Shown in pieces: positions 37,661 to 59,714 of a stretch of DNA of 64,000 bases (positions are counted from its first letter, which is position 1; each line of letters starts with the position of its first letter). The notes under the pieces are model-generated. The model ran no database searches. It was given only the letters and a program-made list of their open reading frames with translations, and was not told the DNA's origin. The position numbers were made by a program, and so were the translations under genes. Origin of the DNA: an uncultured Syntrophomonadaceae bacterium. GTDB taxonomy: Bacteria; Bacillota; Dethiobacteria; DTU022. Where the stretch lies: positions 17,619 to 81,618 of the forward strand of contig CAZPFS010000003.1 in assembly GCA_964585925.1 (NCBI GenBank), written 5' to 3'.

Positions 37661-37828
37661 TTGATTCCCTCCTTAAATATAGTAACCAACCGCTGATTTT
37701 GAGGCAGCCGATAAACACCCATATTTGCTAAAATATTTCGGTACATTTCGGCTCTACCTCACTTATTCCTGCATTTCCCCTCACTACGAAAAAGATTGGA
37801 ATACCCCAACTGTTTGGTTTTATTCCAA

Positions 37829-39253: not shown

Positions 39254-39403
39254 ATTGATAAATATAGCCGTCCGGAATTAGCCCTATGCTCCCTTTTCTT
39301 CCCGCAATCCCGGTATTATCATATTGATAATAAGCATTTATTATAGTTACCAAATGTCTAAATCGTTCAATAGCAGGAGAAGTTTAAGGATAAGCGAAGT
39401 ATA

Positions 39404-42597: not shown

Positions 42598-42617
42598 CTT
42601 TCGCCTTCCCGATTGTT

Positions 42618-43046
42618 TTACCCCATGGCCTCAAAATATTTGTCAAACAGCTCCAGAAACAGATGCCGGGCTTCTTCCTGAAACAAGGCGAACTTCATTA
42701 CCAGACCCCTCCCCTCCGGGGTCAGTTCAGAGCCTCCCCCTGAGTTGCCGCCGATGGTTCTGGTAAGCAGCGGAAACCCCAACCGCCTTTCCAGCAAATC
42801 TACCAGCCGCCAGGCCTGGCTGTAAGACATGCCGATCTCTTTGGCCGCGGCCCTGAGAGACCCGGTCCGTTCAACCCGGTTCAAGATATCGCAGGGGCCG
42901 TCCCCAAATACCTTTTTTCCCCGGTCCTCCAGCCAGATCTTGCAACCGGGCTCAAGGTTCATTTTGTTCACCCTTGGCTTCCGGGGTGCGGCCATCAAAT
43001 ACCCGCCTCCGGACCGCAATGATCTCCGAAAGAATACTGACCGCAA
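42618..43046 (-). CDS. ModE N-terminal-like winged-helix regulator (molybdate-responsive type). The probable start is ATG at 42962 (MNLEPGCKIWLED..).
   Basis: GSLRAAAKEIGMSYSQAWRLV matches the ModE N-domain HTH. The tracked ORF overlaps xdhC by 95 nt; the shorter form overlaps by 11. Confidence 0.55.
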   Translation of the reverse strand: MRSVFFRRSLRSGGGYLMAAPRKPRVNKMNLEPGCKIWLEDRGKKVFGDGPCDILNRVERTGSLRAAAKEIGMSYSQAWRLVDLLERRLGFPLLTRTIGGNSGGGSELTPEGRGLVMKFALFQEEARHLFLELFDKYFEAMG

Positions 43047-43776
43047 TTTCGGCAGGGGTCTCGGCCCCTATCTTGAGCCCGATAGGAGCATGAACCCGGT
43101 CCAGATCTTTGGGATCGACCCCCAGATCACGCAAGTTGCTGAATGTGGCCTCCACCTTTTGGGCACTGCCGATCATTCCCAGATAGGGGACAGGTGAGCC
43201 GATGGTTTTTTCAAGGGCCAGCTGATCGTATTTATGGCCGCGGGTAATTATGGTGATATAAGTCTGCGGTCCAATATGGGCCTGTTCCAGCAACTCTCCG
43301 ATTTCCCCTACCAGCAGTTGGTCGGCGGAGGGAAAAAGATCGCGGTTGCAGAACTCCTCCCGATCATCCAGCACGGTTACCGCAAGGCCGATCATTTTGG
43401 CCATTGCCGCCAGGTGCTGGGAAATATGCCCCGCCCCCACTATAAGCAAAGTTTCGGGAGTCAGAAAGGGTTCAATAAACAACGCCGCTTCCCCGCCGCA
43501 GATCATGCCGGCACTTTCCCCCTCCCGGGCAGTCAACTGCCTCTGATAGAGGCGGCAGCAGTTTTTTTCCATCACTTCGAGGGCAACCTGTATCGCCTCT
43601 TCCTCCAACTCTCCTCCCCCCACGGTACCTGTTTTTCTCCCCCGGGAATCCACCAGCATTTTAAAACCAACCCTGGCCGGGGCGGAGCCTTTTGTCTCCA
43701 CCACCGTTACCAATGCCGCCGGTTCCCCTTTTTCAACTGTTTTCAACAGCTCCCGATACACTTCCAGCACCTTCAA
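42952..43776 (-). CDS. xdhC: XdhC/CoxI-family molybdenum hydroxylase maturation factor
   Basis: XdhC N-domain (PAALVTVVETKGSAPARVGFKMLV) plus a Rossmann C-domain (LLIVGAGHISQHLA). 274 aa. Confidence 0.8.
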   Translation of the reverse strand: MKVLEVYRELLKTVEKGEPAALVTVVETKGSAPARVGFKMLVDSRGRKTGTVGGGELEEEAIQVALEVMEKNCCRLYQRQLTAREGESAGMICGGEAALFIEPFLTPETLLIVGAGHISQHLAAMAKMIGLAVTVLDDREEFCNRDLFPSADQLLVGEIGELLEQAHIGPQTYITIITRGHKYDQLALEKTIGSPVPYLGMIGSAQKVEATFSNLRDLGVDPKDLDRVHAPIGLKIGAETPAEIAVSILSEIIAVRRRVFDGRTPEAKGEQNEP

Positions 43777-44807
43777 TTACCTCCTTTGCCGAAAGAACAG
43801 TTGGGAAAACGACAGGGCGAGCAACCCCGGCAAAGCCCTCCGTGCCCCAATTTGGAAATATGCCGGGCAGTAATTTTTTCACCGGTTAAAATGCGGGGCA
43901 GCAGAACATCGAGTATGGTGGTTCGAAAATACATGGCGCAGGCCGGCAGTCCTATAACCGGAATCTCGCCCAAGTAGGAGAGCATGAACATGGCCCCCGG
44001 AAGCACCGGCGCGCCGTACTTTACCAGCTCCGCCCCGGACAGTTTGATCCCGGTGGGGGTGACATCATCCGGGTCTACCGACATTCCCCCGGTCACAATT
44101 ACCATCCGGCATCCTTTTTCCAGAAGCTTATTGATGGCCGCAGCAATCCGGGGAGCATCATCATCCACGTAAAGCAGGTGAGGATCATCCAGGCCAAAAT
44201 AAGCCGCTTTCCCTTTAATCACGGGAGCAAATCCATCCTTTATCCTGCCGTTTTTTATTTCATGACCGGTAATAATTACTCCCAGGCTTATTTTGTAATA
44301 CTGAAGAACACTGAGCGGATAACAACCCGGTGAGCAGATCTGCTCCACCTGCCGGATAGTATGATCGGAGACCACCAACGGTATTACCTTTACCCCGGCA
44401 ACCTTTTCCCCCTTGTCGACCGGTGAATTGGTATGAATGGTGGATACAACCACCTCCGGAAGACTGTTTAAGGCATTTATCTGTTCAACATCGATCTTTA
44501 AAAGCCCTCTTTGAAGAGAAACCAGGTTTATACGGCCCTCGGAGGGTCCCTCCAGCTGCAGCCCGGAACCGGCCAGCATCCGGGCAATTTTCTCCCCCGC
44601 TTCATCCTCATGGAGATCGCCGGGTTCCAGTTCAATGGAATAGATATGCCGCTTTCCCAGATCCAATAAAACCGGTACATCCTCCGCCGTGATCCGGTGG
44701 CCCTTTTTGAACCGGGGCCCCTTGAAGGTCCCTTTTTCTATTTTGGTAATATCATGACAGATTATTTTGCCAATGGATTCTTCGGTTTTATAATTACTGA
44801 TTTTCAT
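43773..44807 (-). CDS. Molybdopterin-binding (MoCF-biosynthesis, MogA/MoeA-like) domain protein with a unique N-domain and a Cys-rich tail
   Basis: MoCF signature RMVIVTGGMSVDPDDVT. The C-terminus is CRGCSPCRFPNCSFG. It is operonic with xdhC. Confidence 0.55.
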   Translation of the reverse strand: MKISNYKTEESIGKIICHDITKIEKGTFKGPRFKKGHRITAEDVPVLLDLGKRHIYSIELEPGDLHEDEAGEKIARMLAGSGLQLEGPSEGRINLVSLQRGLLKIDVEQINALNSLPEVVVSTIHTNSPVDKGEKVAGVKVIPLVVSDHTIRQVEQICSPGCYPLSVLQYYKISLGVIITGHEIKNGRIKDGFAPVIKGKAAYFGLDDPHLLYVDDDAPRIAAAINKLLEKGCRMVIVTGGMSVDPDDVTPTGIKLSGAELVKYGAPVLPGAMFMLSYLGEIPVIGLPACAMYFRTTILDVLLPRILTGEKITARHISKLGHGGLCRGCSPCRFPNCSFGKGGN

Positions 44808-44920
44808 CTTTTCACCTCGTTTGCCTTGAACAGCTTTTGCTCACAAAATCTTGCCCAAATCCTGAAAGCGCGACCATGATCGTTATTTGTTTGTAAGCAT
44901 AACGGTCTTAAAAAAAATAT

Positions 44921-45715
44921 TCAGGGCAGGAAATGCAACACCGCCTCCAGCACACCTCCTCCCACGGCTCGGGCCTTGTCGGAGATGGACCGGAAGTCAA
45001 CCTCCGCCCCTCGGGGATCTACATCTCCCACCTTCATTCCCTTGCTTGCCGGGAGGCCATTATAGAGCAGACCCCGCACCAGACCGTCGGTTCCCGCCGC
45101 CACGGGAATGCGGCCTACCTCCGCCACCGGCTGGCCCGTTTCAACCAAATCGCCAATTTTGACCAGAGCTTTGAATATCCCATCCGCCGGCGCCCGGAGA
45201 AGCCTTCCCGCCGCCACCCCGGAAACCCCCCCCGGAATACCGGTATTTTCGGCAGCGCTTCCCTGGTAATATACTTTTCCCAGATCGTGCCCGCGCTTGG
45301 TCTCTATTACGGCGTGAACCTCCTGCCCGGCTTCAAATCCCGGCCCCAGTCCGATTACCACCCGGGCATCGCCGATCCTGGTGGTGGTGGCTGTTTTGGC
45401 CATTACCGCATCCACCAGCACCTCCGGCTGAAGTTTCTGCACCAGGCAAGACTCCGGATCGATCAGCACTGCTATCTCCCGGCCATCGATCACCCGGTAA
45501 GCCTCCTCCGCCGTGGCACAAAGCCTGGCCCGAACCCCTTCCACCTCAAAAAGCCCTTCATACACTGCCGAGGAAAAGGCTACTGTGCGCCTCACTGTGA
45601 GGGGCCGGGGAAGTTCCAGCATGATCTGCCGGAAACCGGCCCTGTGCAGGCGGTGTGCCACCCCCGAAGCCAGGTCCCCCGCTCCCCTGATAATTACCGT
45701 CTGTGAAAATTTCAT
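44921..45715 (-). CDS. Rossmann-like SDMH accessory protein (YqeB / EF2563-family-like, TIGR03309-type)
   Basis: 264 aa. N-terminus VIIRGAGDLASGVAHRLHRAGF. It is the first gene of the minus-strand accessory operon, and its family assignment is from memory. The plus-strand ORF 44933..45706 is judged to be the antisense artefact. Confidence 0.5.
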   Translation of the reverse strand: MKFSQTVIIRGAGDLASGVAHRLHRAGFRQIMLELPRPLTVRRTVAFSSAVYEGLFEVEGVRARLCATAEEAYRVIDGREIAVLIDPESCLVQKLQPEVLVDAVMAKTATTTRIGDARVVIGLGPGFEAGQEVHAVIETKRGHDLGKVYYQGSAAENTGIPGGVSGVAAGRLLRAPADGIFKALVKIGDLVETGQPVAEVGRIPVAAGTDGLVRGLLYNGLPASKGMKVGDVDPRGAEVDFRSISDKARAVGGGVLEAVLHFLP

Positions 45716-45743
45716 CGATATTTAACAACCTTTCCGGATTAAT

Positions 45744-45774
45744 TTGTCGCCATGGGGATAGGCCTGGGCTTAAG
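45744..45774. repeat. Solitary degenerate REP-like unit (ggggataggcctgggcttaagatatgtcccc)
   Basis: It shares the ggggatag... / ...atgtcccc arms with the units at 940-970 and 985-1013. Confidence 0.5.
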
Positions 45775-45809
45775 ATATGTCCCCGCGATTTGGTAACCCC
45801 TATTTGTTT

Positions 45810-46100
45810 TCCTTTGAGTAAATCCCTTTAAATCCCCCTAAATCCCCCTTTAAAAAAGGGGGACTTTTTCGGCTGCCCCTTTAAAAAAGGATGCCTCTTG
45901 GATTATCATCTGGAATAAATTGCCTCACTGCCCTTTTAAAAAGGGATACCTTTTTTGGCTTATCACTTATCATTTAAAATGAATTGCCTCACCTTGCTCT
46001 TTTATTAATAAGAAGGATTTGTTTTGCTTACTCCTTAAAAAGACTTAATTGCCTCACCTTGCCCTTTTATGGGGGGACTTTTTCGGCTGCCCCTTTAAAA
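45810..46100. repeat. Repeat-dense AT-rich intergenic block with about six copies of the inverted repeat CCCCTTT-AAA-AAAGGGG, two copies of gggggactttttcggctg, three copies of aattgcctcacYtg, and a triple aaatcccYtt direct repeat
   Basis: Copies at 45834-45852, 45866-45880, 45921-45935, ~45990-46006 (degenerate), 46051-46066 (variant) and 46083-46097. It lies upstream of the SDMH accessory operon and downstream of the xdh operon. Confidence 0.7.
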
Positions 46101-46151
46101 AAGGGGGCCGGCTTCTTTCATTTTTATCCCTTTCGCCGTAAATCTAAAAAT

Positions 46152-46177
46152 CCCTGCCCCTTGGCCAAGGGGCAGGG
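46152..46177 (-). terminator. Rho-independent terminator of the xdh operon (and possibly bidirectional)
   Basis: Perfect 11-bp stem ccctgcccctt-ggcc-aaggggcaggg, followed on the minus strand by aTTTTT and on the plus strand by a T-rich run. It lies 15 nt past the Mo-subunit stop. Confidence 0.75.
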
Positions 46178-46192
46178 ACCACAAAATATTGT

Positions 46193-48574
46193 TTATTTTT
46201 GATCCTTGATCGCCTGCAGCACCCTTTCCGGAGTCAGGGGGAAGGTAGTCAACTCGATCCCTATCGCGTCGGCTACTGCGTTGGCAATGGCGGGACCAAC
46301 GGCAATCATAGGTTGCTCACCGATCCCGCGCACCCCAAAGGGACCGTCTTTTTCCGGTGTTTCCAAGGCAAATCCCTTTAGATAAGGGGTGTTCTCAATA
46401 GTTGGTATCTTGTAGTCGGTAAAGTTCGGATTTAAAATTCGGCCTTGGTCCAACTTGATCTCCTCATAAAGGGCGGTCCCCAGACCCATAATAGTCCCCC
46501 CGTGGATCTGAACCAGGCATTGCTGCGGGTTTACCGCCTGCCCCACATCCAGAGCCGTGGCCAACTGCAGGACAGTGATTTCACCAGTTTCCGGGTCTAC
46601 CTCCACCTCGGCTGCAGTAGCTCCAAAGGTCCAGAACATGCCTGGATTCCCCTGCCCGGTTTCGGGATCAAGATTGGTCATCTTGGAAGGAATATATGAT
46701 CCCCGGCCGATGATCGGCCCATGGATCCCCTCGCCGGTAGGCTTTTTATAGCTGTCGGCCAGGATTCTCAAAGGAACCTGTTTCGATCGGTCCTTTTTCC
46801 AGTATACCGTGTCATCTTCCAGTTCCATTTCCCCGGCCGGCACCCCCAGCTCCAGTGAACCCAGTTCCAGTATCTGCCGGCGGGCATCTTCCGCGGCCTT
46901 TATCACCGCATGCCCCAAAGCATAGGTGGTCCGGCTGCCTACGGTCTGCCACTCGTAGGGACTGTAATCGGTATCGGGAATACGGATGGCAAATTTCTCC
47001 ACCGGGATTTTCAATGTTTCAGCGGCAATCTGGCACATGGCGGTCAGCATGCCCTGCCCCATCTCGGTTGCGCTTACCGAAAGATGAACGGTACCGTCCT
47101 CATTAATCCGGATAATCGCCGAGGAGGAAGCATTGCTGGGCTGGGCCGGCGCTTTCACCAGACCGGCCAGACCTTTTCCGCGGAATTTCCCGCTATCCCG
47201 CTTACGCCACTCCACCGCTTCGGCTGCCGTCCGCAGGCAGTTCATAAAAGATGAATCCTCTATTTTCTGTCCGGTAGCGGTAGTGGATCCCTCTTTCATT
47301 CCATTGAGGAGACGCACATCCAGCGGGTCCAGTCCCAGTTTTTTAGCAATTTCATCCATTTGCCGTTCAATGCCCCACTGCATCTCGCACATGCCAAAGC
47401 CCCGCACCGGGCCGCCTACCGGGTTGTTGGTATAAACACAATAAGAATCCGTCTTGATATTTGGAATATCATACGCCCCGGCAGAGCTGTAAGCCGCCGC
47501 TCGGGTAATATTTACACCATATTCGGTGTAAGCCCCCCCGTCCCAGATCATTTTGTACTCCATGGCCGTGATCCGGCCATCTTTGCGCACCCCGGTTTTC
47601 AGGTGGCCATACATCGCCTGGCGGGTAAAAGTGCACTGCATATCTTCTTCCCGGGTGTACACTACGCGCACGATGTATCCGGGGCATTTTCTGGCCAGGG
47701 GTATAACCAGCCCCTCCATGGTGGCCCCGGCTTTGCCGCCGAACCCGCCGCCGATATAACTGGAAACGACTCTAATTTTGTGCAGGGGCATCCCCAGACA
47801 TTTGGCCAACAGTTGCCGCACGGTAAACGGAGACTGGGCGGTGCTCCAGACCGTCAACTTACCGTCAAAGCCCCATAGAGCGGCCGCTTTATGGGTTTCT
47901 ATGGTCACATGCTGCATCTGAGGAACATAGTAATCCCCTTCGATGATCAGATCTGCCTCGGCAAATCCCTCTTCCACATTCCCTTTGCGGATTTTGCTGT
48001 GATTGCTGATGTTTGTTCCCGCTTCAGGGTAAAAAATAGGAACAACCTCGTAGCTCCCCAGATCCTCATGAATCAATGGCGCGCCGGGTTTCATCGCCTC
48101 CAGGGGATTGAATACCGCCGGAAGTTCTTCGTATTCCACCTGGATCAGATCTACAGCCTGTTGGGCTATATCTTCCGTGGTGGCAGCAACCGCGGCCAGC
48201 GGTTCTCCGAAAAAGCGGACCTTATCCACGGCAAAGAAAGTCCGGTCAACCAGATAAAGCCCCACCCGGTTACGGGAACATTCTTTCCCGGTCGCTACTG
48301 CCCTTACGCCCGGCAAAGCCTCCGCCCGGCTGGTATCTATCCGTTTTATCCGGCCGTGGGGGATAGTCGATTTTTTAATTTTGGCATAAAGCATGGGGGC
48401 CATGCTCAGATCCTCAATATATCTGGCACTGCCGGTCACCTTTTCCTCCGCTTCTATCCGGGAATATGTTTTCCCCACATAGGTTAAGGATGGCATATTT
48501 TCTCCTCCTTTCCTCCTTACTTGGAGCAGGCTTTGATCGCCTGCCGGATTTCCTGATAGGCCCCGCAACGGCAC
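46193..48574 (-). CDS. Xanthine dehydrogenase-family molybdopterin-binding large subunit (purine hydroxylase, SDMH context). The probable start is ATG at 48496 ([11 protein letters not shown]..).
   Basis: Aldehyde-oxidase/xanthine-dehydrogenase a/b hammerhead and MoCo-binding domains across ~770 aa. Strong RBS AGGAGGAGAAAAT before 48496. Confidence 0.85.
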
Positions 48575-48987
48575 AGGTTGCCGCTCAGCGCCTCGCTGAT
48601 CTCCTCATCATCCGGATTGGGGTTCCGGTTTAACAGGGCCCGGGCTGAAATAATCACCCCCGGCGTGCAGTAGCCGCATTGAAAGGCGGCGTGATCGATA
48701 AATGCCCGCTGAACCCGATCCAGCTCTCCATTTTTAGCCAGCCCTTCAATGGTTACCAACTCTTTCCCTTCCAGCTCCGCCGCCAGCACCAGGCATGAGT
48801 TTATCGGCACCTCATTCAACAGCACCATACAGGCGCCGCACTCCCCTACCTCGCATCCTTCCTTGGTTCCGGTAAGTTTCAGCTCTTCCCGGATGAAGTT
48901 GAGAAGGGTCTGCTGGGGACAGACCTCCCGGATCTCCTTCATACCGTTAACAGTAAATGAAATGGTCAGCTTTCCGGACATGAGCAC
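48517..48987 (-). CDS. Xanthine dehydrogenase-family [2Fe-2S] small subunit
   Basis: Plant-type ferredoxin Cys motif ([12 protein letters not shown]) and a second 2Fe-2S motif (CGYCTPG...CRCGAY). 156 aa. Confidence 0.9.
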
Positions 48988-49808
48988 ACCTCCCTGGTCT
49001 CTTCCAGTCCGCGGCGCACCAGAACTTCAGCCAGATGGTAGCGGTATTCCCTGGAGCCCCGCAAATCCGTGATGGGAGAAATGTCATTCTTGACCAGTCC
49101 GGCCGCTTGGGACAGATCTGTTATGTTATCCGCATTGATTGCTTTTTCTACCGAAACAGCTCTAACCGGGGTGGGAGCTACCGCTCCCAGGGCGATTCGG
49201 ACCTCCCCGCGCCATCTCTGGACGGCCACCCCTACCGTAGCCAGATCCACCGAACGGGTCCGGGAGATTTTCTTGTAAACCCCTTTTCCCTGGGGGTAGG
49301 GCCGGGGAATAACCACTGCCGTTACCAGTTCTCCTGCCTTGAGGGCACTTTTCCCGGGACCGGTAAAAAATTCTTCGATGGGAACGCTGCGCCTTCCGTC
49401 CGGTCCGGCTATCTTGACCCGCGCCCCCAGGCAGTACAGGGGAGCGGCGGTATCCGCTGCCGGGGAGGCATTGCAGATATTTCCCACCAGGGTAGCCCGG
49501 TTGCGGACAGAATAAGAGCCGATGCTGTGGCAGCCTTCCGCCAGAACCGGCACATTTTTTCTCACCGGATCGAACCGCAGGATCTGATTCAGGGTTACCC
49601 CGGCGCCGATAGTAATTCCGTCCTGATCTTCTTTCAGTATTTTCAGCTCTTCAATGTCCTTGATATCCACCAATTGCCGGGCTTTGAATTTGCCACCCCG
49701 GATTCCCACCAGCAGATCCGTGCCACCGGCCAACAAATAAGTGCCCTCCGTTTCCAGCCACTTCATGGCCTGGGAAAGGTCGGAACACTTTTGATAAGTA
49801 AACGGCAT
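48966..49808 (-). CDS. Xanthine dehydrogenase-family FAD-binding medium subunit (CoxM-like)
   Basis: FAD-binding PCMH-type domain (AGGTDLLV) and a CO-dehydrogenase flavoprotein C-domain. 280 aa. Confidence 0.85.
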   Translation of the reverse strand: MPFTYQKCSDLSQAMKWLETEGTYLLAGGTDLLVGIRGGKFKARQLVDIKDIEELKILKEDQDGITIGAGVTLNQILRFDPVRKNVPVLAEGCHSIGSYSVRNRATLVGNICNASPAADTAAPLYCLGARVKIAGPDGRRSVPIEEFFTGPGKSALKAGELVTAVVIPRPYPQGKGVYKKISRTRSVDLATVGVAVQRWRGEVRIALGAVAPTPVRAVSVEKAINADNITDLSQAAGLVKNDISPITDLRGSREYRYHLAEVLVRRGLEETREVCSCPES

Positions 49809-49890: not shown

Positions 49891-51189
49891 CTATTTGGCC
49901 AGCTCCTTCAGCGCCTCCACAAAGATCTCCATCGGCGGCAGAACAACGCCCGCCCCGATCTGCCCCACACCGGGTTCCTTGTGGGCAATACCGGTATTAA
50001 TTCGGGGCAGAATCCCTTTCTCCACCACTTTTAGGACGTCGATACCGGTGGGGGTGCCTTTAAAATCAAGAGCCGGGATATTGAAATTCTTGTTCTCCGC
50101 AAACGTAATCTCATACATCTCATTGGTAGCTTCATAAGCCATGCTGGGTTTCCCGCCAATGAAATTGACAATCGCCGGCGCTGCGGCCATGGCAAACCCG
50201 CCGATACCCACGGTTTCCGTGATCACGGAATCCCCGATATCGGGATTGGCATCATTTGCGGTAAACCCGGAGAAATAAAGCCCCTTCGGGGTCTGGCAGG
50301 GCGCGGTAAACCACTTGTCACCGGTGCCGCTGACCCGGATTCCAAACTCGGTACCGTTGCGGGACATGGTGCTCACGATGGAACTGCCCTCAATACCATG
50401 GGCGGCTACGGCCATGGTCTTGCAGGAGGCCATGATCGCGTTGAGGGACGTCAGATCGTTGCTATGCATAAAGGCCAGCACTTCCGCCGCGGCGGTAGGT
50501 TTGATCTCTTTGAAAAAGGGGCAGGTATTGGTCAGGTCAAGACGCGGGGTATCATATTCGCGCCGCCGGCCAAACTCAGTCTCGGCGATATAGGGGGCCA
50601 CGGTGCGGATAAACAAAGAAGTGGTGGCCCGGTTGCGGTTGTGTCCATCATCCCCCATATGCAGGGCCTGGGCAATGATCGATTTTATATCAACCCCCCC
50701 GGAGAGCTTGACCGCTTCTTTCAGCACAGTGGCATAAACCTCATCCAGCCAGCGCAGACGCCTGAGTACCCCCTCATCGTAAGCGCCATAACGAAGAACT
50801 TTCCCGTATCCTTCATTCATGTTGGAAAAAGTGTACCCGCCATGCTCTTTATCTTCAATAATAAACACCATCTGAGAAGGGGTGGTTACTCCGGCCATGG
50901 GCCCCACCGCATTGTAATGGTGGCAGGGAGCATACTCGATATCCCCGGAAGCAGCCAGTTCCCGGGCTTCTTCCACATTACGGGCCTTTTTTTCATGGAT
51001 TAAACCCCCAATAATCGCACCTTTCAGTGGCCCGCTCATGTTTTCCCAGGATATGGGGGGGCCGGCGTGAAGAATCAGGTTGTCCTTCATGCCCGGAATG
51101 ACATCTCTGGCCCGTCCAATATCCACCCATACGGGGCGGGAACTCATCATCCTTTCTACAGCTTTGAGATTTGCCTGATCTACACTCAT
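49891..51189 (-). CDS. DUF1116-family protein (YlbE-like; putative oxamate carbamoyltransferase component)
   Basis: 432 aa. Its size and placement next to fdrA and carbamate kinase match the E. coli fdrA-ylbE-ylbF-ybcF neighbourhood. The family assignment is from memory. Confidence 0.5.
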   Translation of the reverse strand: MSVDQANLKAVERMMSSRPVWVDIGRARDVIPGMKDNLILHAGPPISWENMSGPLKGAIIGGLIHEKKARNVEEARELAASGDIEYAPCHHYNAVGPMAGVTTPSQMVFIIEDKEHGGYTFSNMNEGYGKVLRYGAYDEGVLRRLRWLDEVYATVLKEAVKLSGGVDIKSIIAQALHMGDDGHNRNRATTSLFIRTVAPYIAETEFGRRREYDTPRLDLTNTCPFFKEIKPTAAAEVLAFMHSNDLTSLNAIMASCKTMAVAAHGIEGSSIVSTMSRNGTEFGIRVSGTGDKWFTAPCQTPKGLYFSGFTANDANPDIGDSVITETVGIGGFAMAAAPAIVNFIGGKPSMAYEATNEMYEITFAENKNFNIPALDFKGTPTGIDVLKVVEKGILPRINTGIAHKEPGVGQIGAGVVLPPMEIFVEALKELAK

Positions 51190-51219
51190 TTGATGGAACC
51201 TCCAGTTTCAAATTTGAGT

Positions 51220-51247
51220 GGTGCTGCCGCCTTCAGGCGGCAGCACC
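51220..51247 (-). other. Perfect 12-bp GC-rich stem-loop (ggtgctgccgcc-ttca-ggcggcagcacc) in the 92-nt gap between the cyclase gene and the DUF1116 gene
   Basis: An intra-operon hairpin with no clean U-tract (actcaaattt follows), so it may be an attenuator, a processing site or a weak terminator. Confidence 0.5.
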
Positions 51248-51281
51248 GGGAGCCCGATAACTTACCGGATAACCATGCTGA

Positions 51282-52067
51282 CTACTCCAGAAAGGCCACC
51301 ACCCGGGCAAAAGCCGATTCGCCGCCCTTGAACTTGAAGGGGAAACAACCGATATTGAGCCTTTTGTTTTGCAATTCCGGGGCGCCGATATCGCCGCCCA
51401 GATTTTCCATATGCAGACAGTTGTGTCTAAACAGGGCATTGTGGGTCAACTGGTAATGATCTTCGGGGAAAAGCTTATCCACCGCTTCTTTGCCCCCAAA
51501 CCTTTTTTCCGCTGCTGCCCGTACCCGGTCACACTGTCCGAAAGTTCCCTTGCCCAAAAACCTGCCGATGGGCAGATTCATGGGGTGATCAGTGGATACG
51601 GCGTCTACTCCCCAGATCTTTATCTTTTTGTCCAGCAGCCATTGCACCATATCAGGATGAGCGCCGGGATGATAATGTATATATCTTTCTTCATCGGCTT
51701 CGGGCCCCAAGGCCGCGTATCTGTACCAACCGGTATGCAGCACCAGAAGATCGCCTTCTTTAACTTTCACTCTTTTTTCAATCATTTCGGGAGTATAGGC
51801 AGCCAGGTCATCCATCTCGTCCCTCAAGTCCACGATAACCCCCGTTCCGTACAGCCATTCCAGGGGGATCTCGTCAATGGTCATCCCGTCGGTAATGAAA
51901 TGGCGGGCTGAATCCAGGTGGGTTCCGATATGCAGCGAAGTCTTGATATATTGGGCATTGACTCCGTGTTCCACTTTTCTTTTGAAATACTTGACTTCAA
52001 AGGGAGGATAATAGGGCCAAAAGGTGGTATCCTGATTCAGGGGCTGTGAAAGATCATACAATTTCAT
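51282..52067 (-). CDS. Putative cyclase / kynurenine-formamidase-like metal hydrolase (PF04199 type)
   Basis: HIGTHLDSARH motif (HxGTHxDxPxH). 261 aa. Confidence 0.65.
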   Translation of the reverse strand: MKLYDLSQPLNQDTTFWPYYPPFEVKYFKRKVEHGVNAQYIKTSLHIGTHLDSARHFITDGMTIDEIPLEWLYGTGVIVDLRDEMDDLAAYTPEMIEKRVKVKEGDLLVLHTGWYRYAALGPEADEERYIHYHPGAHPDMVQWLLDKKIKIWGVDAVSTDHPMNLPIGRFLGKGTFGQCDRVRAAAEKRFGGKEAVDKLFPEDHYQLTHNALFRHNCLHMENLGGDIGAPELQNKRLNIGCFPFKFKGGESAFARVVAFLE

Positions 52068-52215
52068 AATTGATTACCTCCTGATTGTAATTGTGAAACC
52101 TTTATTTTCCACACCACAACTGTTTCCGGCAAAATATTTTTCAGGGACAAACCACCTCCCGGGTACATATTTGCAATGCCTTAAAATCGAATCCCAATCG
52201 CAAATATTAAAACTG

Positions 52216-52401
52216 TTATTTCAATTTATCCAGAAGCCTGAGCAGGTTTTCATCCCCCATTGCCGGCGGCTTCCATAGAACATGCACCACCGGCGCCCCT
52301 TTCAGCTTCAGGCTTTCGGCAAACCCCTCCAGGCCGAGGTTGATGACCTTGGGCCCGGCGGTAAAAAGCTGTTGAATATTGGTTGGCGATTGGCCAGTCA
52401 T
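52216..52401 (-). CDS. Small hypothetical protein (61 aa) between fdrA and the cyclase gene
   Basis: RBS GGGGGG 6 nt upstream of the ATG. Its start abuts the fdrA stop. Confidence 0.4.
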   Translation of the reverse strand: MTGQSPTNIQQLFTAGPKVINLGLEGFAESLKLKGAPVVHVLWKPPAMGDENLLRLLDKLK

Positions 52402-52415
52402 GGTTATCCCCCCTG

Positions 52416-54038
52416 TTAGAATTCAAGTACCGCCCCTGCAAACAGCGCTGCCTCGGCATTGCTGGGCAATACGTGCACCTTGTTTTGAATGAGTTTTTTC
52501 ACCTGTTCCCGGCGGTTCTGGGGATCGTCGTCCGTGCCGCATACGGAGGCCACAAACACCGGAGCGCTTCCCCCGGTTTCCCGGCGGGCCCGGTCGATGG
52601 CCTCCAGGGCTGACCCGGCCGGATCGGGGTGGGCATTATATCCCAACACCAGATCCAACATTATTACTGCCGTCCGGGGATCCTTTGCCTCGGCCACAAT
52701 CCGTTGGTTGCGGACGGTGGGATCTATCATCGGATGAAGCCGCCCCTGAGTAAACTCGTCATCCCCAAAATCAATAATGGTATGTCCCCGGCTGTGGTAG
52801 GCGTCTTCCAGGGCCAGCTCGGGATCCAGGGACACATTGGAATAGATAGCCCCCAATTTTTTTTGCAGTAAAACCATTGTTTCGTAGGCCAGCGTGCCCC
52901 CCGAAAACAATCCCCGGAAAAATTTCCGATCCCCGGTGAGCAGGCTTCTTTCTTTCTCCGCAGCCTGCTTTACCCGGCAGTTCATCTCTTCCGGGCGGTA
53001 GTTCTGCTTTCTCAAGGCTGCCACGGCCCTGGCAGCCGCTTCTTTCAGAGTCTGCGCGGGTTCGCAGCCAGATGAAAGCACCTGCTCCGGGCTGGCGCCG
53101 ATAAAATTCACGATCACCGGTTTCGGGCTGCCGGCAGCCGCCTGAAGCACCTTGGAGGCAACCTGCGGCTCCGGAGGCTTGGAAACAATCACAATTATCC
53201 TGGTGGAGGGGTCCGAAATTAAGGCCTCGAGGCCCATGATCATGGTAATCCCGCCCACCTCGCCTTTCAGATCCCGTCCCCCGGTACCGATCCCATGGGT
53301 AATGCCTTCCCCCAGGTTATGGATCAAGGTGGAAACCTCCTGCAAGCCGGTGCCGGCTGCCGCCACAATTCCTATCCCTCCGGCCCGGACCTCATTGGCA
53401 AAAGCCAGCGGAGTGCCGTTAATAATGGCGGTACCGCAATCGGGTCCCATTACCAGCAATCCTTTCTGCCGTGCTTTCTGTTTGAGGGCTTTTTCATCGG
53501 TCAGCGGAACGTTGTCGCTGAAAATCATCACGTGCAGCCCGGCCTCCAGGATACGCTCCGCCTCCCGACGGACATGTCGGCCGGGAATGGAGAGAAGAGC
53601 CAAATTGGCCTCGGGGAAATGCTTCAGGGCGGTGTCAAAAGTCCTGGGAACAAATTCACCGGCCGCCTGATCATGTTCCACCGGCCTGTTCAGTTCCTCC
53701 AGAGCCTGGTTGACAGCTGCCTCTGCCTGACACGGGGTGGCCGCGTTGACCGCGATGATCAGGTCATTGGCTTCCGCTTCCCGTTCAATTTGTTCGGTGA
53801 GAAGGCCGCTGGTCTGTAGAAATTTCTTGTTATGATCGGTTCCTACAATTATCTCGGCTCCCAGTACTCCCTCCTGCTCCCGGATCAAACTCGAAAGGCG
53901 CATCAGGTAAACCGAATCTCGGAAACAGTTTTTATAAATGTGTGTTTTTATAGACATTGAATCCTTCCCCCTTGATTTGAGGTGGTCTTCACCCTTTAGG
54001 CTACCGGGGCCTAGGCGTTTTTGAGGCTGGTTTTCCAT
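52416..54038 (-). CDS. fdrA: FdrA-family protein (succinyl-CoA-synthetase-like CoA-binding plus ligase-CoA domains)
   Basis: 540 aa with an FdrA-like domain order. It is adjacent to carbamate kinase and DUF1116, as in E. coli. Confidence 0.65.
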   Translation of the reverse strand: MENQPQKRLGPGSLKGEDHLKSRGKDSMSIKTHIYKNCFRDSVYLMRLSSLIREQEGVLGAEIIVGTDHNKKFLQTSGLLTEQIEREAEANDLIIAVNAATPCQAEAAVNQALEELNRPVEHDQAAGEFVPRTFDTALKHFPEANLALLSIPGRHVRREAERILEAGLHVMIFSDNVPLTDEKALKQKARQKGLLVMGPDCGTAIINGTPLAFANEVRAGGIGIVAAAGTGLQEVSTLIHNLGEGITHGIGTGGRDLKGEVGGITMIMGLEALISDPSTRIIVIVSKPPEPQVASKVLQAAAGSPKPVIVNFIGASPEQVLSSGCEPAQTLKEAAARAVAALRKQNYRPEEMNCRVKQAAEKERSLLTGDRKFFRGLFSGGTLAYETMVLLQKKLGAIYSNVSLDPELALEDAYHSRGHTIIDFGDDEFTQGRLHPMIDPTVRNQRIVAEAKDPRTAVIMLDLVLGYNAHPDPAGSALEAIDRARRETGGSAPVFVASVCGTDDDPQNRREQVKKLIQNKVHVLPSNAEAALFAGAVLEF

Positions 54039-54135
54039 GTAGTACAGTGCTCATTACCCGGGTTTTTGCGGGAAACAGACTGCGGTTCAATGGTATGCCC
54101 TCAATACTTCAAATATTCTCAGCCAGATCACTTGC

Positions 54136-55074
54136 TCAAGGCTCGATCTGGGTTCCGGCCTTACCTTCTACGGCAGAAACTGCCTGTTCCAGTGAGGTAA
54201 TAACTGCCCTTTTCCCGGATTTACATGCAAACCGGACCGCCGCTTCCGCCTTGGGGCCCATGCTGCCATCGGCAAAGTGTCCCTGCCGAATATATTCTCT
54301 CATCTGGGCCGCGCTCACCGTCCCCAGCTCCTGCTGATCCGGCTTCCGGTAATTGAGAAAAACCTTTGGCACATCAGTCAACATTAAAAACAGCTCTGCG
54401 CCCACGATTTCCGCCAGCTGCTCACCGGCCAGATCTTTGTCGATTACCGCTTCCACACCCTGCACAGTACCTCCCGGCTCCCTGATGACCGGTATGCCCC
54501 CTCCTCCGGAGGCTATCACCAGGCAGGAACTCTCCACCAGCGTTTTGATGGTATTCCCTTCAAATATCTCCAGGGGGAAAGGGGAGGGAACAACCTTTCT
54601 CCAGCCCCGCCCCGAATCTTCCACCCATACCTCGTTTTTCTCCACAGAATTTTTGAGAGCCTCCTCCCTGGAGTAGAACGAACCTATGGGTTTCGTAGGG
54701 TTGGCAAAAGAAGGATCATTTTTGTCCACTACCACCTGGGTGATAAGGGTAACCACCGCTTTGTTTATCCGGTGGCGAATCAGCTCATTTGTTAACTGCT
54801 GCTGCAACATATACCCGATCTGCCCCTGACTCATTGCCCCACAGATGTCAAGGGGCATGGGAGGGGTTTTTTGTCGCGACAGCTCGTTTTGAAAGTGAAT
54901 CTTGCCTACCTGCGGTCCATTGCCGTGAGTAATTACCAGATCATGTTCTCCAATCAGCTTGACCAGTTGCCGGCAGGCGACGGCAATATTTTCGTACTGT
55001 TCTTCGGCAGTCCCCAATTGTCCCGAAGTCAGCAGCGCGTTTCCTCCAAGGGCTACTACGATTCTCATTATCAC
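54136..55074 (-). CDS. Carbamate kinase (ArcC / YqeA-like)
   Basis: MRIVVALGGNALL N-terminus and the amino-acid kinase fold. 312 aa. Confidence 0.85.
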   Translation of the reverse strand: MIMRIVVALGGNALLTSGQLGTAEEQYENIAVACRQLVKLIGEHDLVITHGNGPQVGKIHFQNELSRQKTPPMPLDICGAMSQGQIGYMLQQQLTNELIRHRINKAVVTLITQVVVDKNDPSFANPTKPIGSFYSREEALKNSVEKNEVWVEDSGRGWRKVVPSPFPLEIFEGNTIKTLVESSCLVIASGGGGIPVIREPGGTVQGVEAVIDKDLAGEQLAEIVGAELFLMLTDVPKVFLNYRKPDQQELGTVSAAQMREYIRQGHFADGSMGPKAEAAVRFACKSGKRAVITSLEQAVSAVEGKAGTQIEP

Positions 55075-55320
55075 TTAAACCTCCCAGATCAATTGTGCAG
55101 CTGCAAACCCGCTCCCGCTGCCAATTCCAATCATAACACCCGGGGCTGGAGGTCTGGAATTAATTTTCTATTGTTAATATTATATGCAAGCAGAGGCTCT
55201 TCCTTTAGTTTATATAACCAAATCGCAGGTAATTGTTTGTGTAAACAATACAAATAATATATTGACAAATGGTTTTTTCCCTGCTACTGTTTAGTTGCCC
55301 AATCATATCCGGAGGTGCCT

Positions 55321-57028
55321 GATGAAAAAACAGTACGGTATTACCGTGGAGGAAGCGCTCACTCTGGAAGTTGTAAACCGCCTCAATGTGGTCGGAGGAG
55401 GCCAGGGGCTGGAGCGTGTAATCAAACTGGTAAATGTTATCGAAGCACCCGATATTATGGACTGGGTTTTGGAAGGAGAATTTTTACTTACTACCGGTTA
55501 CTCATTCCGAGAATTCCCGGAGTTGATGACCATGCTGGTGGCCAAAATGGCCCAAGCCAACAGTGCCGGGCTGGCCATCAAGCCCAAGCGGTTTATCAAA
55601 GAAATTCCACCCGATTTGATTGCCAGCGCCGACCGGAACGGTATTCCCCTGCTGGAAGTACCCTACGATCTTTCTTTTTCAGAGATTATCGCCCCCATTT
55701 TGGGGGTCATTGCCAGCAAACAAAACCAGGTCCTGCAAAAGTTGGAACAGGGTAACCGTAAACTGACGGAGATGATGCTTCACGGCAGCACCCTTGGGGA
55801 TCTGTGTTACGAAACTTCCCTGCTCATCCATAACCCGGTAGCCATCATGGATATGGACGGGAAACTATACACCAGCCCGCTGTGTCCGAACAAAGAACAG
55901 TTTGAACTGTTTTTTTCCAAGGACAGCATTGAAGTAAAGAATGACAAGCTGCGTTTCGGCAATATCAAAGAGATCAAGTATTCCATGGAGTCCACTCCCG
56001 GGAAAGACATACCGGGTACCCTGCAGGCGGTTCGGATCCCCATTGTCGCCGACAAATCAGATTATGGGGATATTTACTGCATAATCAACAACCCGATCAG
56101 CGAACCGGATATATTGTTATTGGAAAGGGCCGCCACTATAGCCGCCCTTGAATTTACCAAACGCAAGGCTGTTTTTGAAATAGAAAAAAACTATCATAAT
56201 GAATTTTTGGAAATTTTGCTGTCATACGACTCTGAAAATGAGGATGAAATTATCAGGCGTGCCGGCAGGTTCAATCTCAATCTTCAAAAACCGACCGCGG
56301 TTATAATCATCAATGATCAGTGGGAAAGCAAGGAGCGGGATTTGATCCCGGTTTCCTTGAAAGGCATGAACGAACAGACCGCCAAGGAGCAGCTGTTGAC
56401 CATGATCCACAGCTTCAAGGGACTGCCCGACTGCAACCATTTGTTTGTGGGGATAAAAGGTGCGTATATTATTGTGGTGGTCCAACTGTGCGAGGAAACC
56501 CCTTCCGACAATTTGAAACATGTTGTTTCCAGCCTGTTGAATTTTCTGACCGTGAAAGCCGGTTTAAAAAACAACCATTATATCAAATTCGGAGTTGGCC
56601 GGCCGGGAGAGGGAATCGCCAATATCAAGCGGAGTTACCGGGAAGCCTGGGAGGCCCTCAGAATCGGACTCTTTTCCAACAAATCTTCGGTGATGTATTT
56701 TGACGATCTGGGTTTTTTTAAAATTTTGAGCGAAAAGAGCAGGCATGAGCTGGCAAAATTTGTAGATGAACTGCTTTATCCGGTGCTGGAATATGACCGG
56801 CAAAAAAACGGTGAACTGCTAAAAACACTGCAAACTTATTTTGAAACGAACCGTAATTTCAAGCTTACCTCCCAAAAGATATTTACTCATTACAATACCA
56901 TTTTGTACCGGATAAGAAAGGTTGAAGAGTTGACCGGGATCAGCCTGAATAATCCCGAAGATTCCCTGAATGCAGAAATTGCGGTAAATATTCATAAACT
57001 GCTGCGCTCCGGCAAAAGCGGGCCCTAA
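55321..57028 (+). CDS. PucR/CdaR-family purine catabolism transcriptional regulator. The start is likely ATG at 55321 (MKKQYGITVEE..).
   Basis: N-terminal PucR domain and the C-terminal PucR-type HTH (..TSQKIFTHYNTILYRIRKVEELTGISL). RBS GGAGGTG before 55321. Confidence 0.8.
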
Positions 57029-57133: not shown

Positions 57134-58552
57134 TTAACCGCTCACCGCTTCGGATTTTGCGGCTTCTTCATCGTGAATATAAGCGGTGATCCCGCGTTCG
57201 GCATCGGTGCCCGGAATAATATTATCCAGGATCAAGCCCAGAACTGCCGCTACCGCCATGCTGGTAGAGCAGATAGTGGTGATGATATCCGCCAACCAGG
57301 GCGCCCCTTCAATGACGATATTGGCGTCCGCAATATAGACCGGGACGCTCAAACCCATAAACAGGGAGAACCCGACGATCATTAGGTTGCGCATGGAGCT
57401 CATGTCTGCTTTGGCGGTATTGCTGAGGCCTACCGATGAAATAAGGCCAAACAGCGTGCAGTACAGAGCGCCGACAATGGGCTGGGGAATGGTGGCCACC
57501 AGGCCTCCAAATTTTCCTAAAATGCCCAGAACTACAAACACCACGGCGGCCACGTTAACCACATAGCGGCTGGCCACCTTGGTCAGACCTACCAGCCCGA
57601 TATTTTCGGTATAACTGGTGCTGGCAAAACCACCAAAGATACCGGAGAACAAGCAGCCCACACCCTCAAACCCGATTCCCCGGTTGATCTGTTTTGGAGT
57701 GGGCCTGCCTACTCCCGCCGCGGCGGCAATGGCGTGATAATCGCCGTAGGATTCAATAATCGAACCCAGATAACCGGCTAGAATTATCAGGAAGAAACTA
57801 AAACTAAATTTTGGCAATCCCCAAGGGAAGATAATTTTCCAGCGGACCCAGTCCGCCACCTTTACGGCCGTAAAATCTACAAAGCCGGGGTTTGCCGGAT
57901 CGAAGACACCGGTAACGGAGCAGATCACCGCCACCAGATAACCGATTACCACCGCCAGCAACACCGGGAACAGAGCAAAGAAAGGTTTTTTGGGGCCGAT
58001 AATCAGCGAGAACAAGAAGCACAAAATCATTACCAGTATGGAGATGGGCCAGTTCCCACCGGCCCAGGGCGCACCCACACTGTACAGAGCCAACCCGATC
58101 AAGCAAATAACCGGGCCGATAACCACCGGAGTTACTATTCTTTGAAGCTTACCAATGATTCCTGTAAAACCAACTAAAATTTCTACCAGCGCGCCCAGAA
58201 TAATAGCTCCGTTTATGTACGTCATGGTTATCGGTCCGCCTCCGGCAGCAGCGGTAGCAGCTATAATGCCGAAGAAAGGCCCTAAAAATGCAAACGATAC
58301 CCCTTGGACGATGGGGAGCCTGGTGCCGAAGTTAACCTGAAAGAACGTGGCCACCCCGGAAGCAAGCATTGCACAGGCCACCATCACCGAGGTCTGGTAG
58401 GGATCCATCCCTATTGTGGCTGCCAAGAGCAAGGGCACGGCAACCGTGGCCCCAAACATGGTCAGCATGTGCTGAAACGCCAGACCCAGTGATTTGATAA
58501 ATGGTTTAGGAATATCATCCAGTGTGTATATCATTTTTTCTGCATCCAACAC
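57134..58552 (-). CDS. Nucleobase:cation symporter-2 (NCS2) family xanthine/uric-acid-type permease
   Basis: 472 aa with ~13 TM helices and the NCS2 signature LGLAFQHMLTMFGATVAVP. Confidence 0.85.
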   Translation of the reverse strand: MLDAEKMIYTLDDIPKPFIKSLGLAFQHMLTMFGATVAVPLLLAATIGMDPYQTSVMVACAMLASGVATFFQVNFGTRLPIVQGVSFAFLGPFFGIIAATAAAGGGPITMTYINGAIILGALVEILVGFTGIIGKLQRIVTPVVIGPVICLIGLALYSVGAPWAGGNWPISILVMILCFLFSLIIGPKKPFFALFPVLLAVVIGYLVAVICSVTGVFDPANPGFVDFTAVKVADWVRWKIIFPWGLPKFSFSFFLIILAGYLGSIIESYGDYHAIAAAAGVGRPTPKQINRGIGFEGVGCLFSGIFGGFASTSYTENIGLVGLTKVASRYVVNVAAVVFVVLGILGKFGGLVATIPQPIVGALYCTLFGLISSVGLSNTAKADMSSMRNLMIVGFSLFMGLSVPVYIADANIVIEGAPWLADIITTICSTSMAVAAVLGLILDNIIPGTDAERGITAYIHDEEAAKSEAVSG

Positions 58553-58805: not shown

Positions 58806-59714
58806 TTAGCTGAATGTTTTGACAGGTGGCAAAAAATTGTTCAATGTGTACCAGATGGCCGAAGCCAGATCATAACCGGTGCCGGAACCGATATCCAATA
58901 CGCTGTTTATGCTCTTCTGAGCAAGGGTGCCGCCAAACATTCCCGACAGCAGGTTTCTCACCGGTTCCATGGACAAGCCGCGCCGGGCCATCTCCAGCAT
59001 ATGGGCCCCCATGCGCGTGGTGCAGGAGCCCGAGCCGGGTGGGTAGGGAGGGGGCGACCAACGAATATGGGTGGAATGAAAATAATAGCGGCAGGCCAGC
59101 AGGCATCCGTGAATCAAATCATCCCCGGAAGGGGAGGCTCCCTTGCCCAGGCCGCACAAATTACGAAAATATAGGGCAAATTTTTCTTTGTTTACGGTAA
59201 ATGCAGCCTGAACCAGGGGAGGAAAGCTTTCCACCAGCTTGGCTCGAAAATAACTATCGCCGCCCCTAAATCCCAGCAGGACACTACTGTCCGGCGCCTC
59301 TTTGACCAGGGATAGCCGGTGGCGGAGAACGCCAAGTGAGCGGGCGATTGTTTCCCGATTGGCAACCGGAAGAGGGGGGGGATCAAACCGGCAGGCCGGG
59401 CTATCAGCCCAATTAATAACCAGCAGCCTGTTCATTCCCTCCAAGATGATCTTGCCGGACTGAAACCGGCCTGTGGATTGGGGATCGATCTGGCGCCGAA
59501 AGATGTTGAAATCCTCTTTTTGGAGACAGATCGCCGCCGGCCCTTTGTACAGGGCCGGATCGGCAATAGTCAGCAGGTGAGGCCAACCGCGGACATCAAT
59601 ATTCACTGCCCGCCGATGAAGAGACAGCACCTGCAACGGACCCTCTGTACGGCAATCCGCCAGATCGGCGGCATGCCATTCGGCGGCCATATACTTTGTT
59701 TCAATTCTATTCAT
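58806..59714 (-). CDS. Hypothetical protein (302 aa); a possible DUF2877/YlbF-like partner of the adjacent carbamoyltransferase
   Basis: GLGKGASPSGDDLIHG motif. Its position is immediately downstream of the carbamoyltransferase. The family assignment is unverified. Confidence 0.35.
   Translation of the reverse strand: MNRIETKYMAAEWHAADLADCRTEGPLQVLSLHRRAVNIDVRGWPHLLTIADPALYKGPAAICLQKEDFNIFRRQIDPQSTGRFQSGKIILEGMNRLLVINWADSPACRFDPPPLPVANRETIARSLGVLRHRLSLVKEAPDSSVLLGFRGGDSYFRAKLVESFPPLVQAAFTVNKEKFALYFRNLCGLGKGASPSGDDLIHGCLLACRYYFHSTHIRWSPPPYPPGSGSCTTRMGAHMLEMARRGLSMEPVRNLLSGMFGGTLAQKSINSVLDIGSGTGYDLASAIWYTLNNFLPPVKTFS

Follow-up and report, generated by a model that had tools for sequence, protein, structure and literature searches.

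A stretch of 64,000 nucleotides from contig CAZPFS010000003.1 of an uncultured Syntrophomonadaceae bacterium (hereafter the window) carries on its minus strand an operon that reads, in the direction of transcription, carbamate kinase, FdrA/AllF, a 61-amino acid (61-aa) protein, a cyclase-family hydrolase and DUF1116/AllG, followed by the FAD, 2Fe-2S and Mo subunits of a molybdenum hydroxylase. Judging from homology, the 61-aa open reading frame (ORF) is the detached C-terminal module of AllF. With this separate 61-codon gene supplying the final ~45-55 residues of AllF, the carbamoyltransferase would consist of four polypeptides, not three. The region is probably the core of a PucR-controlled catabolic cluster of anaerobic Bacillota, in which a heterocycle would be converted via a ureide into carbamoyl phosphate and ATP by a four-polypeptide enzyme of the AllFGH type. 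The closest relatives of the region belong to metagenome-assembled genomes (MAGs) of uncultured Syntrophomonadaceae. The ORFs and an intergenic hairpin lie exactly where a sequence-only reading of the window had placed them, all on the minus strand; that reading put the module downstream of the xdh-like genes, whereas by the direction of transcription it is upstream of them.

In E. coli, the fdrA-ylbE-ylbF-ybcF genes encode the oxamate carbamoyltransferase AllFGH and the catabolic carbamate kinase AllK, as established experimentally (Kim & Kim 2024, PMC11326118; 2022, PMC9843812), which agrees with the link drawn in the sequence-only reading. Recognition of AllFGH as an enzyme dates from 2024 and concerns E. 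coli alone. The proteins encoded in the window are 39% (AllF), 44% (AllG) and 40% (kinase) identical to their E. coli counterparts. The FdrA, DUF1116, cyclase and carbamate kinase identities proposed from the sequence alone were borne out by hidden Markov model (HMM) scores, ORF 49891-51189 being placed in DUF1116/AllG and ORF 52416-54038 in the FdrA family; since the family assignments pass curated cut-offs, the HMM searches give no ground for rejecting them. Such cut-offs were passed by carbamate kinase, AllF, AllG, AllH, YqeB and YqeC. The third subunit, AllH (DUF2877), was absent from the earlier gene list, yet it is encoded 4 kb upstream, outside the coordinates then considered, and its presence makes the AllFGH enzyme set complete. 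It shows 27.5% identity over the C-terminus of E. coli AllH and occupies an equivalent position in 18-27 related loci. The most conserved component is AllG, with 75 invariant columns across all contexts.

All four protein families of the E. coli allFGHK set are thus present above their family cut-offs, and the presumed chemistry, from a ureide and phosphate to carbamoyl phosphate and then ATP, would be the same. At the level of subunit families the region can be assigned to AllFGH plus AllK. The AllFGH reaction is oxalurate + Pi <-> carbamoyl phosphate + oxamate, and 39-44% identity leaves the substrate here unfixed. The organization is different. Unlike the single allF-allG-allH-allK operon of E. 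coli, the gene order here is carbamate kinase-allF-tail-cyclase-allG, with AllF split into a 513-aa body and the 61-aa tail, a cyclase-family hydrolase inserted, and allH located in another transcription unit beyond a divergent pucR gene. The E. coli set adjoins allB, allC, allD and allE, whereas no homologs of AllC, AllD or AllE are found near the module in the window, where it is joined operonically to a molybdenum hydroxylase followed by the selenium/molybdenum maturation genes of the latter. The two systems differ in subunit partition, gene order and neighbours, and probably in upstream chemistry.

Several lines of evidence identify the 61-aa ORF as a part of AllF, contrary to the sequence-only reading, which had regarded it as foreign to the E. 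coli set. The large ORF covers positions 2-492 of the 555-position model NF004760, and the small ORF covers its end (Table 1). In BLASTP comparisons with AllF from E. coli K-12, the body shows 38.6% identity over residues 2-493 and the 61-aa ORF 49% over residues 513-555. The AllF body, which consists of the Pfam domains CoA_binding and Ligase_CoA, matches the E. coli FdrA structure (PDB 3DMY) with E = 4e-85, and a profile of the 61-aa family matches the equivalent segment of that structure, in which the tail is covalently part of FdrA; in the window the tail is a separate chain. Both 3DMY and the DUF1116 protein from Enterococcus faecalis V583 (PDB 3CLQ) are structural-genomics entries without functional analysis. 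The AllG fold has a single solved relative, an unannotated entry. Some of the small ORFs are labelled 'fdrA domain protein' by NCBI. Modelled alone, the tail gave a pLDDT of 64.6 and a pTM of 0.35, a confidence too low to be informative; such a low-confidence autonomous fold is consistent with folding on a partner.

The position of the 61-aa ORF, 14 nt past the AllF stop codon and in another frame, with a G6 run within the gap and a match to the very end of the FdrA model, might be taken to mean that fdrA has suffered a frameshift or become a pseudogene, that the sequence contains an error, or that the segment becomes part of AllF through programmed frameshifting. We consider this vanishingly improbable and the variants effectively refuted. 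A separate Shine-Dalgarno sequence (GGGGGGA) precedes the ATG of the ORF by 7 nt, the AllF frame ends with two stop codons, and the G-run is located only after the AllF stop. An independent assembly, locus L001, shows an identical allF/61-aa arrangement. Free-standing homologs (n = 25) are 53-65 aa long, 51-80% identical and share 15 invariant residues. A profile search of 1.84 billion representative sequences retrieved 1,438 clusters with the tail; among the best 150 of these, 114 are at most 100 aa long, and seven are 559-625 aa long with the match at the C-terminus. Compared with the closest relatives, the 61-aa ORF has a dN/dS ratio of 0.08-0.14; overall the ratio reaches at most 0.26, synonymous sites being nearly saturated, and the ORF is thus under purifying selection. 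Its conservation in related loci, which the sequence-only reading had proposed to check, shows it to be a real gene for a small subunit.

To trace the tail across relatives, species-representative genomes were scanned with the tail alignment, giving 312 confirmed places, from which 80 loci were kept; on these loci cluster proteins were mapped, the continuity of reading frames was tested and sequences were inspected. The tail occurs in four fusion states. It is free, in the order allF-tail-allG, in 24 of the 25 Bacillota/Syntrophomonadaceae loci, and also free in all 15 alphaproteobacterial loci, where the order is tail-allG-allF-carbamate kinase. With a complete allG separating the tail gene from allF, the latter order excludes a simple allF frameshift. 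The tail is fused to the N-terminus of AllG in all six Spirochaetota loci and in some others, and to the C-terminus of AllF in E. coli and 13 Chloroflexota loci. Finally, four loci from Chloroflexia (Chloroflexota) encode a triple fusion AllF-tail-AllG of ~1,015 aa. The linker between AllF and the tail is long and variable (~20-40 residues), and that between the tail and AllG comprises ~6-8 residues. As the tail can be free, fused to AllF, fused to AllG or fused to both, its most likely role is that of an adaptor that binds AllG and links AllF to it; the tail would then be the fourth subunit of the carbamoyltransferase in this organism. This pattern offers a concrete hypothesis for AllF-AllG coupling, and annotators of AllFGH systems should seek a fourth small gene. 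Our literature search found no paper on the free tail gene or on the pattern of its fusions. The triple-fusion polypeptides were observed in the Chloroflexia MAG loci L033 (8330-11392), L067 (8306-11392), L069 and L032; close relatives of these, such as L026 and L075, have breaks at the junctions, some of which may be long-read indel errors.

The AllF gene probably starts at ATG 53957 (Met28), giving the product of 513 aa, because this codon is preceded by the Shine-Dalgarno sequence AAGGGGGAAGG, E. coli AllF aligns to the 540-aa ORF from residue 30 onwards, and no protein with the exact 540-aa sequence occurs in the protein collection searched. The carbamate kinase gene probably starts at ATG 55068. 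Within AllF, His248 (540-aa numbering, GITHGIGTGGRD, ~53297-53295) resembles the phosphohistidine loop of the succinyl-CoA synthetase alpha subunit. The position is His here and in E. coli, and in only 34 of 75 homologs altogether, the others including 30 with Gln and 8 with Tyr. The closest relative, L006, whose protein is 77% identical, has Gln. Since the histidine is replaced in over half of the homologs, including the closest relative, we dropped the succinyl-CoA-synthetase-like mechanism and make no claim for it.

The operon continues into a three-subunit molybdenum hydroxylase, which the sequence-only reading described as a xanthine dehydrogenase (XDH) of the selenium-dependent molybdenum hydroxylase (SDMH) type welded to the module. 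The presence in one operon of a selenium-type hydroxylase, associated with YqeB and YqeC, holds, whereas the XDH identity is not supported. The maturation markers YqeB (TIGR03309, 340.2 bits vs cut-off 220) and YqeC (TIGR03172, 122.8 vs 73.05) are clear members of their families, and selenium dependence of the hydroxylase is predicted from them. The Mo subunit reaches none of the NCBIfam equivalog cut-offs, including NF043082 (XdhA; 564.7 vs 780), NF007426 (533.8 vs 916) and TIGR03196 (473.7 vs 783.65), and its best PDB match is 4-hydroxybenzoyl-CoA reductase (1RM6), not a xanthine dehydrogenase. It retains the catalytic-Glu motif GIGE, and an Ala follows GGGFGGK, at a position that we take to be Glu802 in bovine XDH. 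The hydroxylase trio adjoins AllF/AllG in ~40 of the 80 related loci, in Bacillota, Chloroflexota and Spirochaetota. No link of FdrA/DUF1116 to XDH, to a cyclase, or to barbiturate or ureidomalonate, nor any paper on the hydroxylase/cyclase linkage to AllF/AllG, was found in the literature. Among the maturation genes, 41209-42597 is one 462-aa ORF in which YqeC, the selenium cofactor marker, is fused to a MocA-type molybdenum cofactor cytidylyltransferase; the same fusion was seen in 15 related loci.

Most Syntrophomonadaceae clusters lack the cyclase-family gene and have 30-70 nt between tail and allG, and in some relatives a CN-hydrolase fills the same slot. The gene thus behaves like an accessory cassette, encoding a hydrolase, that was inserted between tail and allG. 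It is present within 10 kb of AllF/AllG in 32 of 82 loci (counting the window and L002), or in 25 by clustering, and two tandem copies follow allG in Chloroflexota. The protein carries the metal motif HIGTHLDSARH (HxGTHxDxxxH) and a full-length Pfam domain, and its best solved relatives, PDB 8F9X together with kynurenine formamidases and isatin hydrolases, belong to that family; a cyclase-phosphotriesterase is also related (PMC12135135). It differs from kynurenine formamidase and isatin hydrolase by ~100 extra C-terminal residues and by its context, which is ureide/nucleobase and not tryptophan catabolism. With 61.4 bits against the cut-off of 223.05 it falls short of the arylformamidase equivalog TIGR03035, so that only membership in the PF04199 superfamily can be assigned. 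It is a candidate ring-opening or deacylating hydrolase.

The perfect 12-bp GC hairpin that the sequence-only reading noted between the cyclase gene and DUF1116 is real and conserved in relatives. At 51247-51220 the sequence GGUGCUGCCGCC-UGAA-GGCGGCAGCACC folds with -27.9 kcal/mol (z = -6.5 vs shuffles); it is unique in the window, with 0.00 matches expected by chance, and lies in a 92-nt intergenic gap, beginning 34 nt downstream of the cyclase stop and ending 30 nt upstream of the allG ATG. Loci L004, L006 and L002 carry a corresponding stem after the cyclase gene; three of the base pairs show compensatory changes in both arms, and pairing holds for 97.9% of cells. No counterpart was found in the cyclase-less loci examined, nor in L016, despite a cyclase gene before allG there. 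The element most likely protects RNA 3' ends, directs RNA processing or acts as a leaky pause; it may have arrived with the cyclase cassette, and it may set differential expression of the operon. So stable a stem in a short gap could instead be a terminator or attenuator that separates carbamate kinase-allF-tail-cyclase from allG-xdh, and in L002 the equivalent stem precedes a partly T-rich stretch; alternatively, since palindromic symmetry is kept in relatives, it could be a protein-binding palindrome acting at the DNA level. We regard both alternatives as unlikely. The hairpin is followed by ACUCAAAUUUGAAAC, with no U-tract, and is therefore not a canonical terminator; a U-tract is also missing in L004 and L006, and the terminator scan omits the hairpin yet lists 46180-46149. 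No promoter-like site was found between the hairpin and allG, which has its own Shine-Dalgarno sequence, and enzyme function needs AllG made together with AllF. A sequence-specific protein site is made less likely by the stem sequence, which is not conserved but co-varies. Rejected along with the terminator were a REP-like repeat and a known RNA family, the hairpin having a single copy in the window and no match in Rfam. The top terminator-like site of the scan, at 46149-46180, is the single canonical terminator after the Mo subunit gene. The xdhA-yqeB intergenic region (45716-46192) spans 477 nt here vs ~120 nt in the closest relatives L004 and L006, and beyond the terminator it contains three direct repeats 64-65 nt apart, AATTGCCTCACCTTGC[C/T]CTTTTAT, as well as four hairpin-forming CCCCTTTAAAAAAGGGGG-like motifs.

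Taken together, these genes suggest the following route. An NCS2-family permease would import a nucleobase-type heterocycle, which the YqeB/YqeC-dependent, selenium-type hydroxylase would hydroxylate. The ring would then be opened, probably by the cyclase-family metallo-amidohydrolase, and the resulting ureide (an N-carbamoyl compound) would react with phosphate on the AllF/AllG/AllH-type enzyme to give carbamoyl phosphate and an amide. Carbamate kinase would convert carbamoyl phosphate and ADP to ATP, NH3 and CO2, and the amide product may continue through a CN-hydrolase and a CoA-transferase. As for the ureide, oxalurate and some other compound have about equal chances, each slightly short of even. 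Oxalurate stays a good candidate because of the extreme conservation of AllG and the similarity of the CoA-transferase to oxalate-type enzymes, and it would then come from a source other than the classical allantoin route; intermediates of the ureidomalonate and ureido-imidazole type are alternatives that computation does not separate from it. A more specific proposal, which we put forward tentatively and hold to be somewhat less probable than its negation, is an anaerobic ATP-yielding nucleobase route that bypasses allantoin. In this proposal, the selenium-dependent hydroxylase and the cyclase-type amidohydrolase would pass an acyl-ureide directly to AllF/tail/AllG/AllH, with the 61-aa protein as an obligatory coupling subunit, and the ATCase-family enzyme encoded upstream may harvest a second ureido group. 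Candidate ureides are oxalurate formed via a parabanate-like trione, ureidomalonate from uracil via barbiturate, and ureido-imidazole from xanthine.

The sequence-only reading proposed instead a complete route from purine to oxalurate, and in its classical form purine would be degraded via urate, allantoin, ureidoglycolate and oxalurate to carbamoyl phosphate and ATP, with the molybdenum enzyme acting as xanthine dehydrogenase and AllFGH as a strict oxamate carbamoyltransferase. The 39-44% identity of AllF, AllG and the kinase to E. coli enzymes that act on oxalurate speaks for such a route, as do the 75 invariant columns of AllG, which argue for one common substrate in all contexts, the PucR regulator and the xanthine/uracil-family permease that flank the operon, and a sub-threshold similarity of the CoA-transferase to oxalate/formyl-CoA transferases, which would fit conversion of oxamate to oxalate and oxalyl-CoA. 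However, tblastn searches (E <= 1e-4) with E. coli AllC, AllD and AllE found nothing in the window or the 80 related loci, and domain scans of the large ORFs of the window showed no recognisable allantoinase, AllB and uricase not having been used as queries. Uricase requires O2, whereas these clusters are of an anaerobe type and selenium-dependent. None of the XDH equivalog cut-offs is reached by the Mo subunit, whose nearest PDB relative is 4-hydroxybenzoyl-CoA reductase. In nitrifiers, allFGHK adjoins biuret/triuret genes, with no upstream purine genes (PMC12625717), and the module is therefore portable between pathways. The complete purine-to-oxalurate route is accordingly not supported, and we consider it improbable.

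A PucR-controlled route from a heterocycle via a ureide to ATP is the interpretation that we prefer, and several observations weigh against parts of it. AllH is weakly conserved and was missed by tblastn in many loci. The evidence for the adaptor role of the tail consists of fusion patterns. The Mo subunit scores under all equivalog cut-offs, and Ala occupies the position of the presumed Glu802. The cyclase gene is missing from most of the nearest Syntrophomonadaceae clusters and so cannot be an obligatory step. The covariation of the hairpin is thin, comprising four sequences, and the inverted repeat at 51220-51247 could be a DNA-level site.

The closest known parallel is the 2,8-dioxopurine pathway of gut anaerobes, in which a selenium-dependent hydroxylase, ring-opening amidohydrolases, a carbamoyltransferase and carbamate kinase have been proven to yield ATP, at the substrate level and from a ureide derived from purine; its enzymes are XdhAC/DOPDH, YgfK, SsnA, HyuA, YgeW, YqeA, YgeY and YgeX (Liu et al. 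2025 preprint, bioRxiv 10.1101/2025.04.24.650524). By analogy, the window would likewise link a YqeB/YqeC-type molybdenum hydroxylase to a ring-opening hydrolase, a carbamoyltransferase and a carbamate kinase. The enzymes are different. The carbamoyltransferase is of the AllFGH type, not YgeW, the hydrolase belongs to the cyclase family and is neither SsnA nor HyuA, and the molybdenum enzyme has three subunits and reaches 351.6 bits with the Se_dep_XDH model vs the cut-off of 830. Family scans found no SsnA, HyuA, YgfK, YgeY or YgeX in the operon, and the ATCase-like gene upstream scores 31.9 bits with the ygeW model, whose cut-off is 500. In Bacillota, Chloroflexota and Spirochaetota, the AllF/AllG module is found time and again joined to a selenium-type molybdenum hydroxylase, cyclase- and CN-hydrolase-family hydrolases and a CoA-transferase, and this recurrent linkage points to a widespread anaerobic route to ATP from N-heterocycles, parallel to the 2,8-dioxopurine pathway and enzymatically distinct from it. 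Of most use from the analysis are a model for the coupling of AllF to AllG that can be tested and a candidate cluster for allantoin-independent, ATP-yielding degradation of heterocycles.

Table 1. Features of the AllF/AllG operon and of the adjoining transcription units in the window.
Feature	Position	Strand	Evidence
Carbamate kinase (AllK/ArcC type), first gene of the operon	54136..55074	-	TIGR00746, 411.6 bits vs cut-off 358.25; 40% identity to E. coli AllK
AllF/FdrA body, succinyl-CoA-synthetase-alpha-like subunit, without the C-terminal module	52416..54038	-	NF004760, 481 bits vs cut-off 433
61-aa microprotein, predicted detached C-terminal module of AllF	52216..52401	-	NF004760 positions 502-555, E = 9.5e-11
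Cyclase-family (PF04199) metal-dependent amidohydrolase	51282..52067	-	PF04199, 128.5 bits vs cut-off 23
Stem-loop between the cyclase gene and allG	51220..51247	-	12-bp GC-rich stem, UGAA loop
AllG (DUF1116) subunit	49891..51189	-	PF06545 (Pfam name now 'AllG'), 302.5 bits vs cut-off 27
Molybdenum hydroxylase, three subunits	46193..49808	-	Pfam domains; FAD 49808-48966, 2Fe-2S 48987-48517, Mo 48574-46193
Canonical intrinsic terminator closing the operon after the Mo subunit gene	46149..46180	-	14-bp stem followed by UUUUAGAUUU; -26.1 kcal/mol
Selenium/molybdenum cofactor maturation genes	41209..45715	-	YqeB 45715-44921, MoCF-domain protein 44807-43773, XdhC-like 43776-42952, YqeC-MocA fusion 42597-41209
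PucR-family regulator, divergent from the carbamate kinase operon	55295..57028	+	PucR, GGDEF_2 and HTH_30 domains
NCS2-family nucleobase permease (xanthine/uracil type)	57134..58552	-	PF00860, 282 bits; pbuX subfamily, 260.6 vs cut-off 414
AllH (DUF2877) subunit, neighbouring transcription unit	58806..59714	-	PF11392, 49.3 bits vs cut-off 25
ATCase-family carbamoyltransferase	60808-59744	-	TIGR00670, 253.9 bits vs cut-off 236.95
Family III CoA-transferase, upstream of allH	62031-60844	-	CoA_transf_3, 462 bits

The unit upstream of the operon comprises the CoA-transferase, the ATCase-family carbamoyltransferase, AllH and the NCS2 permease, and is separated from the carbamate kinase operon by the divergent PucR regulator, whose position is kept in 26 loci. 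The whole layout is retained in relatives down to ~60% identity (L002, L006, L016, L055 and others). The CoA-transferase is below the cut-off on oxalate/formyl-CoA transferase models. The order CoA-transferase-ATCase-AllH is common to L006 and L055, and ATCase-AllH is found in L016. The ATCase-family gene (59744-60808) passes the aspartate carbamoyltransferase equivalog cut-off, and its product may be an additional carbamoyltransferase, catabolic in function, that supplies the carbamate kinase of the operon as well. Across the related loci the conserved core includes the permease, the selenium-type molybdenum hydroxylase, an optional cyclase or CN-hydrolase, AllF/tail/AllG/AllH, often carbamate kinase and often a family III CoA-transferase. 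The other recurrent families in the neighbour census of the 80 loci, judged by sequence and context, are lineage-specific housekeeping genes, ABC transporters/CoxG-like proteins and antisense ORF artefacts.

The rest of the window contains housekeeping genes and a separate operon of the sigma-54 type. At its far end (62907-64000, minus strand), a sodium:solute symporter gene is cut by the window boundary, only profile positions 152-406 being present. The sigma-54-type operon is formed by a block of lower GC content at 27050-41212 (43-47% vs 50-56% in the flanks), with a PrdR/NifA-like activator divergent from it. It encodes an M20 amidohydrolase, a 545-aa amidohydrolase of the TRZ/ATZ/SsnA family and a five-gene ABC transporter of the branched-chain/urea type, along with an M28 peptidase with a PA domain, a 300-aa protein without a family match and a serine-dehydratase-alpha-like protein. 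This block may represent another catabolic island for nitrogen compounds.

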